Assembly: GCA_965200345.1 (NCBI GenBank)
Contig: OZ241378.1
Location: forward strand, 5,434,314 to 5,498,313
From: Candidatus Poribacteria bacterium
Lineage (GTDB): Bacteria > Poribacteria > WGA-4E > WGA-3G
Direction of reading: 5' to 3'
DNA: 64,000 nt
Shown here: piece by piece, positions 58,278-62,214 of the stretch
How positions within the stretch are numbered: position 1 is the first letter of the stretch
Layout: each line of letters begins with the position of its first letter
The notes under the pieces: generated by a model
Databases searched by the model: none
What the model saw: the letters and a program-made list of their open reading frames with translations, nothing else
What the model was told of the DNA's origin: nothing
Translations under genes and position numbers: made by a program

Positions 58278-59534
58278 TTACTTGGTTTTCAAACTTCCCC
58301 AAGTTGTGAAGAATTTACCAGCGGCTTCAACAGATGTGCCTAACTGTGCACTTGACTTATAGATAGCCTCGACAGGGGCGTTGATACCGGCGTACATGCC
58401 CCATCCGCCACCCCGTTCACTGACTTTTATCATCAGGATGTTGTCACCTTTTACAAGGTTAACTGCGAACGAATCTTGGAAGGAGGTTGCGCCGCCGCGT
58501 CCGCGGTTGACAGCGTTTGTATGAACGACTTCACCGTTGAGCCAAACTTTGACGGAGTCATCACTGCTGACACCAATCATCGCGCCTTCCACATCTTCCT
58601 CAGATACGAGTGTGATGAGGGCATAAGAGGTAACGTCGTTGAAATCAGCGTTTTCTGTCACACCGAGTTCGACGAGCATAGCGTTGATATTTCCGTCTGC
58701 TGGGAGTTCACCGAGCGTCCAAGCGTAATCGCCGACTTCGTCGCCTTCAGTTGCGCCGTTCATTGCAACGTCTTCTTCGGTGACATCGTCGTTACTGGCG
58801 ACTGCGAGAGAATCGATATCGGTAGAAGCTTGTCCGCCTTGGTTGGCTTCTGTGGGTGCGATCATCCAGAGCCATTCGCCTGTGATGTGGAAGATAGGTG
58901 GCGTAGGTGAGGTAGTGACATCGGCATCGATACCGACGTACTGTCCCCATCCACCACCGCGTTCACTCACCTTCACGAGCAACAGATTAGCACCTTCTAC
59001 CAGGTTCACTTCAATTTTATCTTGGTAGGCGTCTATATTAGCGGGTGTTCCCCCGCGTCCGCGGTTGACAGCGTTTGTATGAACGACTTCACCGTTAAGC
59101 CAGACTTTGATAGAGTCATCGCTGCTGACTCCGAGCGTTACGCCGGACTGTGCTGTAGCGGACACAAGGTAGATAAGTGAATAAGAACTCACGTCGTTGA
59201 AATCGGCAACTTCTGTTAAACCTATGTCGACGGCCATAACGTTCGTATCGCCGTTATCGGGCAGGGTGCCGAGCGTCCATGCGTAGTCCCCGACAACGTC
59301 ACCTTCGTTTGCGCCGTTTGCTGCGACCATATCTTCAGTAACATCACCACCACTGGCGACTGAGAGAGAGTCGATATCGGTAGAAGCCTGTCCACCTTGG
59401 TTGGCTTCTGTGGGTGCGATCATCCAGAGCCATGGTCCTTTAATGGGTTCTTGTGCATCAGCAACCTGTGTTACCGTCAGCACAAAAAGAGCCATGAGAC
59501 ATGCTAAACCTATTGTAAATAGTTTCCTGTACAT
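58278..59534 (-). CDS. Secreted two-repeat protein of the GPWLWMIAPT family, with C-terminal tail
   Basis: Start MYRKLFTIGLACLMALFVLTV.. after GGAGG. Two repeats of about 190 aa each contain GxWLWMIAPTEANQGGQASTDIDSL...SSDDS[IV]KVWLNGEVVHTNAVNRGRGG...VKVSERGGGWG. Tail SVEAAGKFFTTWGSLKTK. Confidence 0.7.
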   Translation of the reverse strand: MYRKLFTIGLACLMALFVLTVTQVADAQEPIKGPWLWMIAPTEANQGGQASTDIDSLSVASGGDVTEDMVAANGANEGDVVGDYAWTLGTLPDNGDTNVMAVDIGLTEVADFNDVSSYSLIYLVSATAQSGVTLGVSSDDSIKVWLNGEVVHTNAVNRGRGGTPANIDAYQDKIEVNLVEGANLLLVKVSERGGGWGQYVGIDADVTTSPTPPIFHITGEWLWMIAPTEANQGGQASTDIDSLAVASNDDVTEEDVAMNGATEGDEVGDYAWTLGELPADGNINAMLVELGVTENADFNDVTSYALITLVSEEDVEGAMIGVSSDDSVKVWLNGEVVHTNAVNRGRGGATSFQDSFAVNLVKGDNILMIKVSERGGGWGMYAGINAPVEAIYKSSAQLGTSVEAAGKFFTTWGSLKTK

Positions 59535-59734
59535 GAAAACCTCCAAATTAATTTTCATTTTTTAAGTGAATCAGAGTTGTCTGTTTTTGTGTGTCCGGTA
59601 ATAATATTACGTCAGCGGTTACACAGACACAGATAGGACAACCACTTTGGTGTAGTATAACAGATATACCACAATTAAATCAAGCGAAAAAAATTGCGCC
59701 CCGAATTTCAGATTGAGGCTTACAAAAAACGAGC

Positions 59735-60436
59735 TTAGTAAGACCTTTTAACTTCAGCCCATTGCGTCGCCAGTTTTCGGGCGGGTTCAACGGGTTGAAA
59801 CTTTTCAAAATCTATGTGGTGTTCAACATCGGCATCGACACCGACGTATTGTCCCCATCCGCCGCCGCGCTCACTGACCTTCACCATTAACAGATTCGCC
59901 CCTTTTTTCAGGTCAACTTCAAACCTATCTTGGTAACCATTTATATTGGCGGGTAAACCACCGCGCCCACGGTTCACAGCCATTCGATGGACCTCTTCAC
60001 CATTAAGCCAGACTTTGAGAGAATCATCGCTGCTGGTACCCATTGTCACACCGGACTGCTTTTTGCTGGATTCAAGTATGAGAAGTGCATAAGACGTAAC
60101 ATCGTTGAAATCAGCGACTTTTGTCATCTTAATATTCACGACACACACGTTGATGTCGCCGTTCGCTGGGAGTTCGCCAGGAGTCCACTCGTAGTCACCG
60201 ACTTCATCGCCTTCTTTTGCGCCGTTTTTTGCGACCTTTTCCTCGGTGACTTTGCCTTTGCTGGCTTCATCGAGAGAATCTTCATCGGTAGAAGCCTGAC
60301 CGCCTACACCGGCATCGGTAGGTACGATCATCCAGAGCCACGGTCCCGCGATTGGCTCTTCGGCATTAGCGATGTGCATCATAACCGAAAGACTCATTAG
60401 ATATACCAGTCCTATTACCCATAATTTTTTTTGCAT
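59735..60436 (-). CDS. Secreted one-repeat member of the same family, with C-terminal tail
   Basis: Signal peptide MQKKLWVIGLVYLMSLSVMMHIANA, one repeat (GPWLWMIVPT...SSDDSLKVWLNGEEVH...VKVSERGGGWG) and tail PVEPARKLATQWAEVKRSY. Confidence 0.7.
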   Translation of the reverse strand: MQKKLWVIGLVYLMSLSVMMHIANAEEPIAGPWLWMIVPTDAGVGGQASTDEDSLDEASKGKVTEEKVAKNGAKEGDEVGDYEWTPGELPANGDINVCVVNIKMTKVADFNDVTSYALLILESSKKQSGVTMGTSSDDSLKVWLNGEEVHRMAVNRGRGGLPANINGYQDRFEVDLKKGANLLMVKVSERGGGWGQYVGVDADVEHHIDFEKFQPVEPARKLATQWAEVKRSY

Positions 60437-60912
60437 TTATTTACTTAGAACATCCTTTCATTGCTTGTCAAAAAGTTTTAGAGAATTGTACAACAACATT
60501 TGCCTACAAATTACAACGATAACAGGTTTTACAGAGCCATTCAATTCTCGATTTTCTGAGTGCATTATCGGGAACAGGTCCCCGTGGCTATCCACAAGCA
60601 TCGGGGTTACAAACCCCTCCCACAAGAGCGATTTGTGCCAATTGAATGGCTCGGCAAGTTTTATAGTAAAGCCCACAATTACCTATATAATACCGGAATA
60701 GTAGGGTTACAAACCCTGCCAGCGCGGGAGGTGTTTTGTGTATTTGAAGGTGTTTATATATCTTCGGACTTTACTATAAGTAGAGAAATAAAATGATTAT
60801 ATTATCGCTGTCCCGTCTATTCAACTAACGAAACAGGTTAGCACAGGTTACCAAAAATGTCAAATACATTTTCTCGATTGAATTTTGAACTATTTGGTTG
60901 AAAGCGACTGCC

Positions 60913-62214
60913 CTAACGGGCGCGCTTTAGTTCTCCCCACTTGGTTATAAGTTTACCCGTAGGTTCAACAGACAGAGAACCTGGTGTGCTTGTGAGAGCG
61001 AAATCAGCATCAATGCCGACGTACATGCCCCATCCACCGCCGCGCTCACTGACCTTGACCATCAAGAGATTACTGCCGCGTTTGAGGTCAACATCAAACG
61101 TATCTTGGAAGGTGTTTGCGTTCCCACGTCCGCGGTTGACGGCGTTGGTATGAACGACTTCACCGTTGAGCCAAACCTTGATAGAATCATCACTATTGAC
61201 ACCCATCGTAACGTCGCGCTGTGCTTTCGTGGTTTTAAGGGTAATCAAAGCGTAGGATGTAACATCGTTAAAGTCAGCGACGTTTGTCATACCGATTGAT
61301 ACGACAGTTGCGTTGATGTTCCCGTCTGCTGAGAGGGTGCCGAACGTCCATTTATAATCGCCGACGGTATCACCTTTTCTTGCCCCATTTTTTGCGACTT
61401 TTTCCTCGGTGACTTTGCCTTTGCTGGCATTATCCAGAGAATCGACATTGGTGGAAGCCTGTCCGCCTTGATTGGCTTTGGTGGGTGCGATCATCCAGAG
61501 CCACGGGCCGGTAATACGTCTATTTGCGCCCCATTCATTTTCTTGTACGGGTATGGGGTCTCCCTTAGCGTCAAATTCAACGTGTTCATAATCATCAAAG
61601 TTTAGGCTGTGCTCGAAATCAGCATCAATGCCGACGTTCATACCCCAACCGCCACCGCGTTCACTGACTTTGACCATCAACAGATTCGCCCCTTCTTTGA
61701 GGTTAACCTGAAATTCATCTTGGAATTCATTGGGGCCTCCACGTCCGCGGTTGACTGCGTTTTTATGAACGACACTGCCGTTGAGCCAGACTTTGATAGA
61801 GTCATCGCTGCTAACGCCCATCGTTACATTACGTTGCTCTGTGTCGGATTCGATGATAATAATGGCATAAGACGTGACATCGTTGAAATCAGCGATGTCT
61901 GTCATTCCTATATCAACGAGCATCGCATTGATATTTCCATCGGCAGGCAGTTCACCGGGAGTCCATTTATAACCGCTGACGGGATCACCTTCTTTGGCTC
62001 CGTTTTCTGCAATTTGTTTTTCGGAGGTTCTGCCTTTGCTGGCATCATCGAGTGAGTCAATATCGGTAGAAGCCTGTCCGCCTTGATTAATTTCGGTTAG
62101 CGTGATCATCCAGAGCCACGGACCGGTGATACGTTCTTGTGCCTGGCTGATGTTTATTGTCATGAGAAAGTTTATCAGACATGCTAACCCTATCAGGAAA
62201 AATTTTTTGTACAT
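60913..62214 (-). CDS. Secreted two-repeat member of the same family, with C-terminal tail
   Basis: Signal peptide MYKKFFLIGLACLINFLMTINISQA, two repeats and tail SVEPTGKLITKWGELKRAR. Confidence 0.7.
   Translation of the reverse strand: MYKKFFLIGLACLINFLMTINISQAQERITGPWLWMITLTEINQGGQASTDIDSLDDASKGRTSEKQIAENGAKEGDPVSGYKWTPGELPADGNINAMLVDIGMTDIADFNDVTSYAIIIIESDTEQRNVTMGVSSDDSIKVWLNGSVVHKNAVNRGRGGPNEFQDEFQVNLKEGANLLMVKVSERGGGWGMNVGIDADFEHSLNFDDYEHVEFDAKGDPIPVQENEWGANRRITGPWLWMIAPTKANQGGQASTNVDSLDNASKGKVTEEKVAKNGARKGDTVGDYKWTFGTLSADGNINATVVSIGMTNVADFNDVTSYALITLKTTKAQRDVTMGVNSDDSIKVWLNGEVVHTNAVNRGRGNANTFQDTFDVDLKRGSNLLMVKVSERGGGWGMYVGIDADFALTSTPGSLSVEPTGKLITKWGELKRAR

Follow-up and report, generated by a model that had tools for sequence, protein, structure and literature searches.

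Organization of the locus

We analysed a 64,000-nucleotide stretch of DNA from a Candidatus Poribacteria bacterium (GenBank assembly GCA_965200345.1, contig OZ241378.1, positions 5,434,314 to 5,498,313 of the forward strand), hereafter the window, and concentrated on a tandem array of three minus-strand genes within it. The open reading frame (ORF) listing of the window places three intact, neighbouring ORFs at 58278-59558 (gene A, 426 aa), 59735-60436 (gene B, 233 aa) and 60913-62214 (gene C, 433 aa), and motif positions and a MAFFT alignment assign to their products two, one and two copies of a single domain. An earlier note, made from the letters of the sequence, had described this 2-1-2 layout, a repeat of about 190 aa, a set of motifs retained in all five copies, and a signal peptide and common C-terminal tail on each protein. 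All of this is borne out, the figure of 190 aa fitting a repeat period of 186 aa in protein A and 205 aa in protein C, with an aligned core of 174-178 aa (about 175 aa). The note left the function of the domain blank; we argue here that A, B and C are probably secreted, monovalent or bivalent glycan-binding proteins resembling the PA14 lectins, each domain being a lectin or a module like those called carbohydrate-binding modules (CBMs). The features of the array, in their order along the minus strand, are as follows.

60913-62214, minus strand: gene C, encoding a 433-aa two-domain protein predicted to be secreted; signal peptide aa 1-25, cleaved between SQA and QER
61612-62133, minus strand: domain C1, aa 28-201 of C; hidden Markov model (HMM) E ~1e-103; an orthologous lineage of its own
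60997-61518, minus strand: domain C2, aa 233-406 of C, beyond a 31-aa linker
60916-60972, minus strand: C-terminal tail of C, SVEPTGKLITKWGELKRAR
59735-60436, minus strand: gene B, encoding a 233-aa single-domain protein predicted to be secreted; signal peptide aa 1-25, cleaved between ANA and EEP
59822-60355, minus strand: domain B, aa 28-205 of B; in its candidate site the Asp-Asp (DD) doublet is aa 137-138, and Glu189 with the loop RGGGW is aa 189-194
59738-59794, minus strand: C-terminal tail of B, PVEPARKLATQWAEVKRSY
58278-59558, minus strand: gene A, a 426-aa ORF encoding a two-domain protein predicted to be secreted; cleaved between ADA and QEP
58914-59447, minus strand: domain A1, aa 38-215 of the 426-aa ORF
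58368-58889, minus strand: domain A2, aa 224-397 of the 426-aa ORF, beyond an 8-aa linker
58281-58334, minus strand: C-terminal tail of A, SVEAAGKFFTTWGSLKTK

The true start of gene A is likely the ATG at 59534, which would give a protein of 418 aa (N-terminus MYRKLF..), since a GGAGG lies 8 nt upstream and 418 aa fits the 415-425 aa of the orthologues; read from 59534, the N-terminus and the length agree with those of paralogues and orthologues alike. In each of the three N-termini a basic n-region leads into a hydrophobic core and then an AxA site, and these are predicted to be classical Sec/signal peptidase I signal peptides that release mature proteins beginning 3-5 residues ahead of the GPWLWM strand. 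Export as lipoproteins was considered and rejected; the cleavage sites have no Cys and no lipobox.

A domain absent from curated family collections

The five copies are 65-72% identical to one another, and every one of them retains GPWLWMI (GEWLWMI in A2), GGQAST, ADFNDV, SSDDS or NSDDS followed by KVWLNG, NRGRG, and SERGGGWG. An HMM built from the five finds those five alone in a six-frame translation of the window, each at E 1e-98 to 1e-103, with no further match below E = 2, and a DNA repeat search recovers the same copies at 69-76% identity. The repeat is far beyond chance. Scanning the three proteins against NCBIfam returned nothing relevant, and in neither Pfam nor NCBIfam is there a model that matches one domain on its own above the cut-off, so that no assignment to a well-characterised family results; our literature search found no description of this Poribacteria domain family. 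The domain is best described as a family absent from curated collections: new, restricted to one phylum, and very divergent within a known fold superfamily.

The nearest database entries are annotated as "hypothetical proteins" and come from Candidatus Poribacteria. We searched 1.84 billion representatives, each standing for one cluster at 50% identity, exhaustively with the profile and obtained 4015 matches at E <= 1e-3, 626 at E <= 1e-10 and 210 at E <= 1e-30, and most of the top 150 span the profile from end to end. Clusters at 50% identity within the family number in the hundreds. When each GTDB species was scanned through a single genome, at least 545 confirmed relatives came to light, and the best 74 loci are all from Poribacteria. 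When ten divergent representatives were looked up, four belonged to clusters with a name, and all four were Candidatus Poribacteria; two of the four bear locus tags prefixed DRP/EYP, which we take to come from hydrothermal or sediment surveys rather than from sponges. Two matches may lie outside the family: P0219 and P0246 align with the profile in its C-terminal half alone and are assigned to PA14 by Pfam; they are generic PA14-like repeats. As far as these data reach, the complete domain appears to be specific to the Poribacteria and strongly expanded there.

Conservation of the array

Among the best 74 loci, the array occupies the same chromosomal site in 62. The order there is an aldo-keto reductase gene, a gene for a thiamine-binding-protein-like product, the array, and then a convergent flank of xylose-isomerase-like TIM barrel, HIBDH-like and GFO/IDH/MocA genes. 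The array itself takes the form 2-1-2 in the closest clade to the window, a 1-2 core in most other species, and 2-1-1-2 in some. Its ORFs are intact in almost all loci, and on that ground we reject pseudogenisation; the family, which numbers hundreds of clusters and whose orthologous arrays are intact in many species, is also far from being confined to this site. The sole clear disruption among the 74 loci is in locus L040, where the two-domain gene of the array is split into overlapping ORFs (6752-7717, 322 aa without the tail, and 7618-8022, 135 aa with it), either by a frameshift, making it a pseudogene, or by a sequencing error.

Orthologues have ratios of nonsynonymous to synonymous substitution (dN/dS) of 0.08-0.22 (gene C 0.08-0.21, its orthologues being 72-89% identical; gene B 0.14-0.22; gene A 0.14-0.20), and the paralogous domains, at a dS of about 0.8-1.6, have dN/dS of 0.15-0.28. 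Judged by these ratios, the array is clearly under purifying selection, and the earlier supposition that conservation of the motifs implies function agrees with the whole range of 0.08-0.28. Across ten complete 2-1-2 loci, identity between a domain and its positional counterpart is 81-96%, and the counterpart is closer than any paralogue by 5-23 percentage points, so C1, C2, B, A1 and A2 constitute five separate orthologous lineages. Recent local duplication and concerted evolution were rejected on the strength of the paralogue dS and the distinctness of these lineages. Since there is no concerted evolution among them, the sequence comparison argues for non-redundant roles of the five domain positions.

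Predicted fold and its relatives

AlphaFold2 predictions run with the family alignments gave a model of protein B with a mean predicted local distance difference test score (pLDDT) of 82.8 (about 92 in the core) and one of protein A with a mean of 82.4, both of its domains lying mostly at 83-95, and a predicted TM-score of 0.65. Each domain is very likely a single beta-sandwich of about ten strands, as modelled. GPWLWMI is strand 1, and the acidic "VTEE..NGA.EGD" segment is modelled as three or four short helices before the sandwich resumes. Because strand 1 and this helical excursion belong to the same sandwich as the rest, the N-terminal half is not a separate module. The earlier note could not place that half: no family model covers it, as was said, yet the model does give it a place in the sandwich.

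That note had also compared the C-terminal part with galactose-binding or jelly-roll domains, and here several lines of comparison agree with it. Foldseek alignments against the PDB cover some 180-220 columns. With the two-domain model the best matches are the tandem PA14 dyads of RsgI, clostridial anti-sigma factors that sense polysaccharides (6QE7 and 6QDI, E 5e-9), and further matches include tandem CBM51, a tandem Pleurotus lectin, glycoside hydrolase family 2 (GH2) domains, and the rhamnosidases 2OKX and 3W5N (E 4e-5 to 5e-4). With a single repeat, the comparison that the note had proposed, GH2 N-terminal sugar-binding domains rank first (E 4e-5), and MpPA14, the lectin of the ice-binding adhesin of Marinomonas primoryensis, is found at E 1.6e-4 with a TM-score of 0.47-0.51 normalised on the target. 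Sequence searches of the PDB with protein B and with the 5- and 24-sequence profiles (phmmer and hmmsearch) returned marginal matches alone: the beta-sandwich of 7KMM, a sialate 9-O-acetylesterase (best E 0.002), GH2 N-domains (1YQ2, E 0.005), and an artefact from a de novo TIM barrel.

The sole recurrent Pfam signals are PA14, RhaB_D2 and GH2_N, and these are partial, fall in the C-terminal half (50-105 residues) and mostly stay below threshold. RhaB_D2 (PF21557, 172 positions), which is presumably tied to CBM67-type modules and PA14, is the commonest, in 8 of 24 domains, with single domains reaching E 0.002 at best and the match limited to profile positions ~33-122; protein C attains 34.1 bits (cut-off 27) only by adding two domains. 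Neither a full-length RhaB_D2 match nor the context of a GH78 rhamnosidase was found for the window proteins. GH2_N (PF02837) matches 5 of the 24 domains, always below threshold. For protein A as a whole the Pfam PA14 score is 27.9 bits (cut-off 24), summed over two partial stretches; PA14 matches are confined to profile positions ~63-98, and precomputed annotation places PF07691 on P0007 and P0015.

The prominence of GH2 N-domains, both as the best single-domain Foldseek matches and among the PDB sequence matches, raises the question of whether the domain is a passive beta-sandwich spacer of the same sort. Its motifs would then be mere determinants of the fold, as KVWLNG..V...F.V.L..G.N.L.V.V, a common structural core, might suggest. 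We think this most unlikely. Proteins A, B and C consist of the domain and export signals alone, leaving nothing to which it could be accessory; in multidomain proteins its usual place is the N-terminal tip rather than a position between modules; and orthologue dN/dS of 0.08-0.22 together with five separately conserved lineages indicate a function of the domain itself. No GH catalytic domain occurs among the 25 most frequent of the 125 Pfam families in 42 multidomain relatives, nor in six relatives scanned singly. Because GH2_N domains score much the same as PA14, the fold match holds at the level of the superfamily.

A candidate binding site

PA14 lectins combine a sandwich fold with a cis Asp-Asp doublet (DcisD), which binds the Ca2+ that ligates the sugar, and an Asn or Gln, some 44-46 residues after the doublet in bacterial lectins, starts a five-residue loop, CBL2, that sets their specificity (PMC8092209, PMC6852018). 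A Tyr two residues before the Ca2+-binding Asn stabilises the cis peptide, as do Y222 of Flo5 and Y129 of RsgI4 (PMC6852018). Conservation in our family was computed over 159 domains:

S109, 94%; D110, 96%; D111, 96%; K114, 98%
W116, N118 and N150, 100% each; position 158 (E/D/N), 94%; W163, 98%

The DD doublet is thus present in 96% of family domains and in all five of the window. In a short-fragment scan it falls on positions 69-70 of the Pfam PA14 profile, where the DcisD of Flo1 (a bait sequence confirmed to be identical to 4LHL_A) falls on 69-70 or 70-71. Because the invariant doublet occupies the PA14 DcisD columns, the label "unknown function" can be narrowed to a divergent, lectin-like module of the PA14 superfamily, even as it remains true that no curated model describes it. 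Position 158 lies 47 residues past the doublet at the end of a strand, and is followed by the five-residue loop RGGGW and the next strand. In the model the doublet is in a turn between two strands and the E-RGGGW segment links two others; from the alternation of strands assigned by DSSP, we infer that both of these elements and the variable NRGRG loop would lie at the same end of the sandwich. The family has invariant residues of its own besides, GPWLW, D26, E38, W57 and Y89, and we speculate that two of them, D26 and E38, might provide a further metal site, structural in nature and comparable to CBL1a/b in the RsgI modules.

Several observations weigh against a PA14-like binding site and belong together here. 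The Foldseek TM-scores are modest (0.36-0.51), and the match to PA14 is no better than that to GH2 N-domains, structural components of enzymes rather than lectins. Single domains stay below threshold on the PA14 profile (E 0.015 at best, the DD fragments scoring 12-17 bits against a cut-off of 24). An hhalign comparison of the family profile with the Flo1 PA14 lectin was not significant (probability 0.4%), and membership of the fungal Flo/Epa branch is accordingly not claimed. The position of the cis-peptide Tyr (156) is Val in 93% of family domains; an alternative register, anchored on Trp-Gly, places Ser (72%) or Tyr (15%) at position 157. Finally, any differences in specificity among the five domains of the window cannot be explained by the CBL2-like loop RGGGW, which does not vary among them.

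Larger relatives usually carry the domain at their tip

The domain starts at most 60 residues from the N-terminus in 79 of 150 representatives. The modules that accompany it include leucine-rich repeats (LRR; 18 of 42 multidomain relatives), WD40 propellers (7 of 42), Big_1/invasin D3, cohesin, Laminin_G_3, MG2/MG4 and a weak metallopeptidase-like region, and they are followed by a dockerin and a C-terminal domain (CTD) of the FlgD_ig/Por_Secre_tail type. By analogy, this is the layout of an adhesin, with a putative binding head outermost, then a stalk and finally an anchor, and the window proteins are minimal versions of it, heads alone. The remote members P0162, P0195, P0173 and P0183 have type I cohesin or dockerin and a FlgD-Ig CTD like that of the type IX secretion system (T9SS), which hints at a surface assembly system in Poribacteria based on cohesin and dockerin; to our knowledge, these organisms are not known for cellulosomes or a T9SS.

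Such company also suits a reading in which the domain is a protein-binding or self-assembling surface module without a sugar ligand. The small tail-bearing proteins would then be components of the envelope or matrix, and the large paralogues would contact host or partner proteins as their LRR and WD40 regions do. The co-occurrence with LRR, WD40, cohesin and dockerin speaks for it, as do the missing Tyr of the DcisD-N signature, the invariant GPWLW, D26, E38, W57 and Y89 outside the PA14-like site, and the five array lineages kept apart as expected of assembly subunits. Nevertheless, it seems to us unlikely: the structural neighbours with a known role all bind carbohydrates, and conservation of the doublet and the acidic residue at 94-96% is hard to ascribe to fold stability alone, because many galactose-binding and GH2_N domains lack those residues.

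The C-terminal tail

Proteins A, B and C all end with the common tail, whose consensus, drawn from 141 ORFs of the family, reads [PS]-V-E-P-A-G-K-L-x-T-[TQ]-W-[GA]-x-[LI]-K; two or three further residues precede the stop. The alignment is anchored on the Trp and the tails were collected with a pattern that fixes K, T and W, so the invariance of those three is not independent evidence; V and E are each present in 138 of the 141. At ~16-19 residues and without a hydrophobic helix (in the models of A and B it is a terminal helix of low confidence), the tail is unlike the known classes of signal, the T9SS signal being a beta-sandwich of 70-100 aa and the sortase, exosortase and rhombosortase signals consisting of a motif, a transmembrane helix and a basic cluster. 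Compared with the Pfam and NCBIfam models of sorting signals (T9SS CTD/Por_Secre_tail, PEP-CTERM, LPXTG, GlyGly-CTERM and others), it gave no match even at E <= 10.

Of the 150 representatives, 85 end in a FlgD_ig/Por_Secre_tail-like CTD (median length 947 aa), 11 in the short tail (230-479 aa), and 54 are truncated or end otherwise; none has both tail and CTD. The tail is also found on proteins of other kinds. In the window it terminates two ORFs resembling DUF1080/3-keto-disaccharide hydrolases, at 20452-21378 (plus strand) and 37402-38082 (minus strand), which match PF06439 at E 1e-6 and 1e-10, and in related loci it closes five ORFs outside the family: L023 4949-5671, L028 1802-2623, L029 2416-3234 and L035 2928-3656, all on the minus strand, and L072 1366-2163 on the plus strand. 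On such unrelated small proteins it has the form ..EPxxKLTxxWGQ[IL]K... Its presence there means that the tail, a candidate general signal, is carried by different cargo folds and is not confined to the family; this, and its mutual exclusion with the CTD, suggests a function in targeting or retention.

The DUF1080 proteins of this genome share with A, B and C the plan of a signal peptide, one beta-sandwich and the VEPxGKLxTxWGxLK tail, but they belong to a different, ConA-like fold family (PF06439), and the domain itself is unrelated to theirs in sequence. Their occurrence in the same window invites the idea that our domain too is catalytic, a small secreted glycoside-processing enzyme comparable to DUF1080/3-keto-disaccharide hydrolase with Asp and Glu as catalytic residues. 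The GFO/IDH/MocA oxidoreductases and xylose-isomerase-like TIM barrels of the flanks, typical of oxidative sugar metabolism, fit that idea, as do weak, partial matches to 3keto-disac_hyd. Those matches, however, extend over no more than some 21-27 residues, all in the common "KVWLNG" strand, with E-values of 0.002-0.1; the flank genes are on the opposite strand or generic; Foldseek does not group the models with ConA-like hydrolases; and it would be unusual for a small protein to contain a catalytic domain duplicated in tandem. An enzymatic role is, in our estimate, highly improbable.

Neighbouring genes and other features of the window

Immediately upstream of the array, a thiamine-binding-protein-like gene (PF01910; 62229-62537, minus strand) ends 14 nt before gene C and is itself preceded by an aldo-keto reductase gene (62547-63485, minus strand). 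Most Poribacteria loci keep this gene order. The array is possibly co-transcribed with the former, to which it has no obvious functional link. Downstream, a consensus scan finds a strong hairpin that is likely the end of the transcription unit:

58204-58239, minus strand: terminator-like hairpin, 15-bp stem with 7 G-C pairs and a T-run, ~40 nt past the stop of gene A

Elsewhere in the window, the segments 1132-1725 and 42404-42997 form a 594-bp direct repeat of 100% identity, its copies 41.3 kb apart. A search of it for tRNAs, Rfam families (E <= 0.01) and convincing ORFs was negative, and it could represent a non-coding element, mobile or repeated, or else an artefact of assembly. A second direct repeat of ~300 nt (695-994 and 5758-6057, 5 kb apart) is 88% identical. 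The ORF at 49950-51434 (minus strand), which begins with a heavy-metal-associated (HMA) domain, contains at 50239-50723 at least 22 tandem copies of a 15-nt unit encoding a pentapeptide repeat; it adjoins a paralogue, also with an HMA domain, at 51456-52415, the two sharing 71% DNA identity over 300 nt (51105-51404 versus 52056-52355). Three tRNA genes, two for tRNA-Met (CAT) and one for tRNA-Leu (TAA), lie at 36290-36363, 38264-38337 and 38361-38446, all on the minus strand, and flank the tail-bearing DUF1080 ORF at 37402-38082.

Discussion

It seems probable to us that the domain described here is a binding module. That its ligand is a sugar, as its relatives lead one to think, we regard as quite possible, if short of probable, and that binding would depend on Ca2+, an idea borrowed from the PA14 lectins, is more doubtful. 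The Sec system is predicted to export polypeptides carrying one (B) or two (A and C) Poribacteria-specific PA14/galactose-binding-like domains. If these bind glycans, the putative site would be at one end of the sandwich and comprise the SDD doublet, the variable NRGRG loop, and the segment S-E-R-G-G-G-W with its E/D/N residue, Gly-rich loop and invariant Trp; on the PA14 analogy, the doublet and the acidic residue could hold a Ca2+ that ligates the hydroxyls of the sugar. The small proteins would act as soluble or surface-retained lectins, monovalent and bivalent. Their destination might be set by the 16-residue VEPxGKLxTxWGxLK motif, in place of which the large paralogues would use a dockerin and a T9SS-like sorting domain. 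A role in adhesion of the symbiont within the sponge, or in the capture of polysaccharides, can be envisaged.

The closest parallel is with the RsgI PA14 dyads (6QE7, 6QDI; PMC6852018), the best two-domain structural match, which are likewise extracellular tandem beta-sandwiches and likewise have Asp-Asp on a strand or turn and, ~44-47 residues on and at a putatively equivalent place, a polar residue that starts a five-residue loop between strands. The RsgI site accommodates a Ca2+ through which pectin or xylan is bound (PMC6852018). The differences are considerable. Identity is ~10%; the TM-score is low, the orientation between domains being different or poorly predicted; the Poribacteria domain exceeds theirs in length by ~30 residues, and the helical excursion that follows its strand 1 brings a separate set of invariant residues; and the proteins have Val in place of Tyr, no membrane anti-sigma factor, and instead a signal peptide and a novel tail. 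The PA14 lectins of adhesins, MpIBP (6X7Z etc.; PMC8092209) and yeast Flo/Epa (4LHL, 2XJP), share the sandwich fold and the DD columns, and the large members of our family resemble them in having a distal N-terminal head, a repetitive stalk and a C-terminal anchor. They differ in that profile similarity to Flo1 is not significant, single domains are sub-threshold, and the family is found in one phylum. With GH2_N (PF02837), RhaB_D2 (PF21557) and 7KMM, the domain has in common the core (D)DS.KVW(L/V)NG..V....F.V.L..G.N.L.V.V. Those domains, however, are parts of enzymes, whereas the Poribacteria proteins have no catalytic partner; the window proteins show nothing of the GH2 layout of jelly-roll, Ig-like and TIM-barrel catalytic domain, the domain standing alone, and GH2_N has no DD doublet.

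A more ambitious proposal, which we put forward as rather improbable, is that domain and tail together make up a surface-recognition system specific to the Poribacteria, in which a lectin head is distributed over hundreds of paralogue lineages and directed by two alternative C-terminal targeting devices, the tail being a sorting or anchoring signal not described before.

Poribacteria are among the most abundant and least tractable symbionts of sponges, and the question of how they become attached to the sponge matrix, come to be recognised by it or feed on it is usually framed in terms of "eukaryote-like" repeat proteins. An unannotated, phylum-restricted domain that heads many LRR, WD40 and Ig surface proteins, and that also occurs in stand-alone secreted forms at a conserved locus, bears on that question. 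The analysis yields a hypothesis with named residues, a Ca2+-dependent PA14-like glycan site, and protein B, small and with a single domain, should lend itself readily to expression, crystallography and work with glycan arrays. With a dedicated profile HMM, hundreds of "hypothetical proteins" could be annotated as a family, and the common tail is a candidate for a new targeting signal. Should the surface-recognition proposal prove true, the lectin heads would recognise glycans of the sponge host or of particles.

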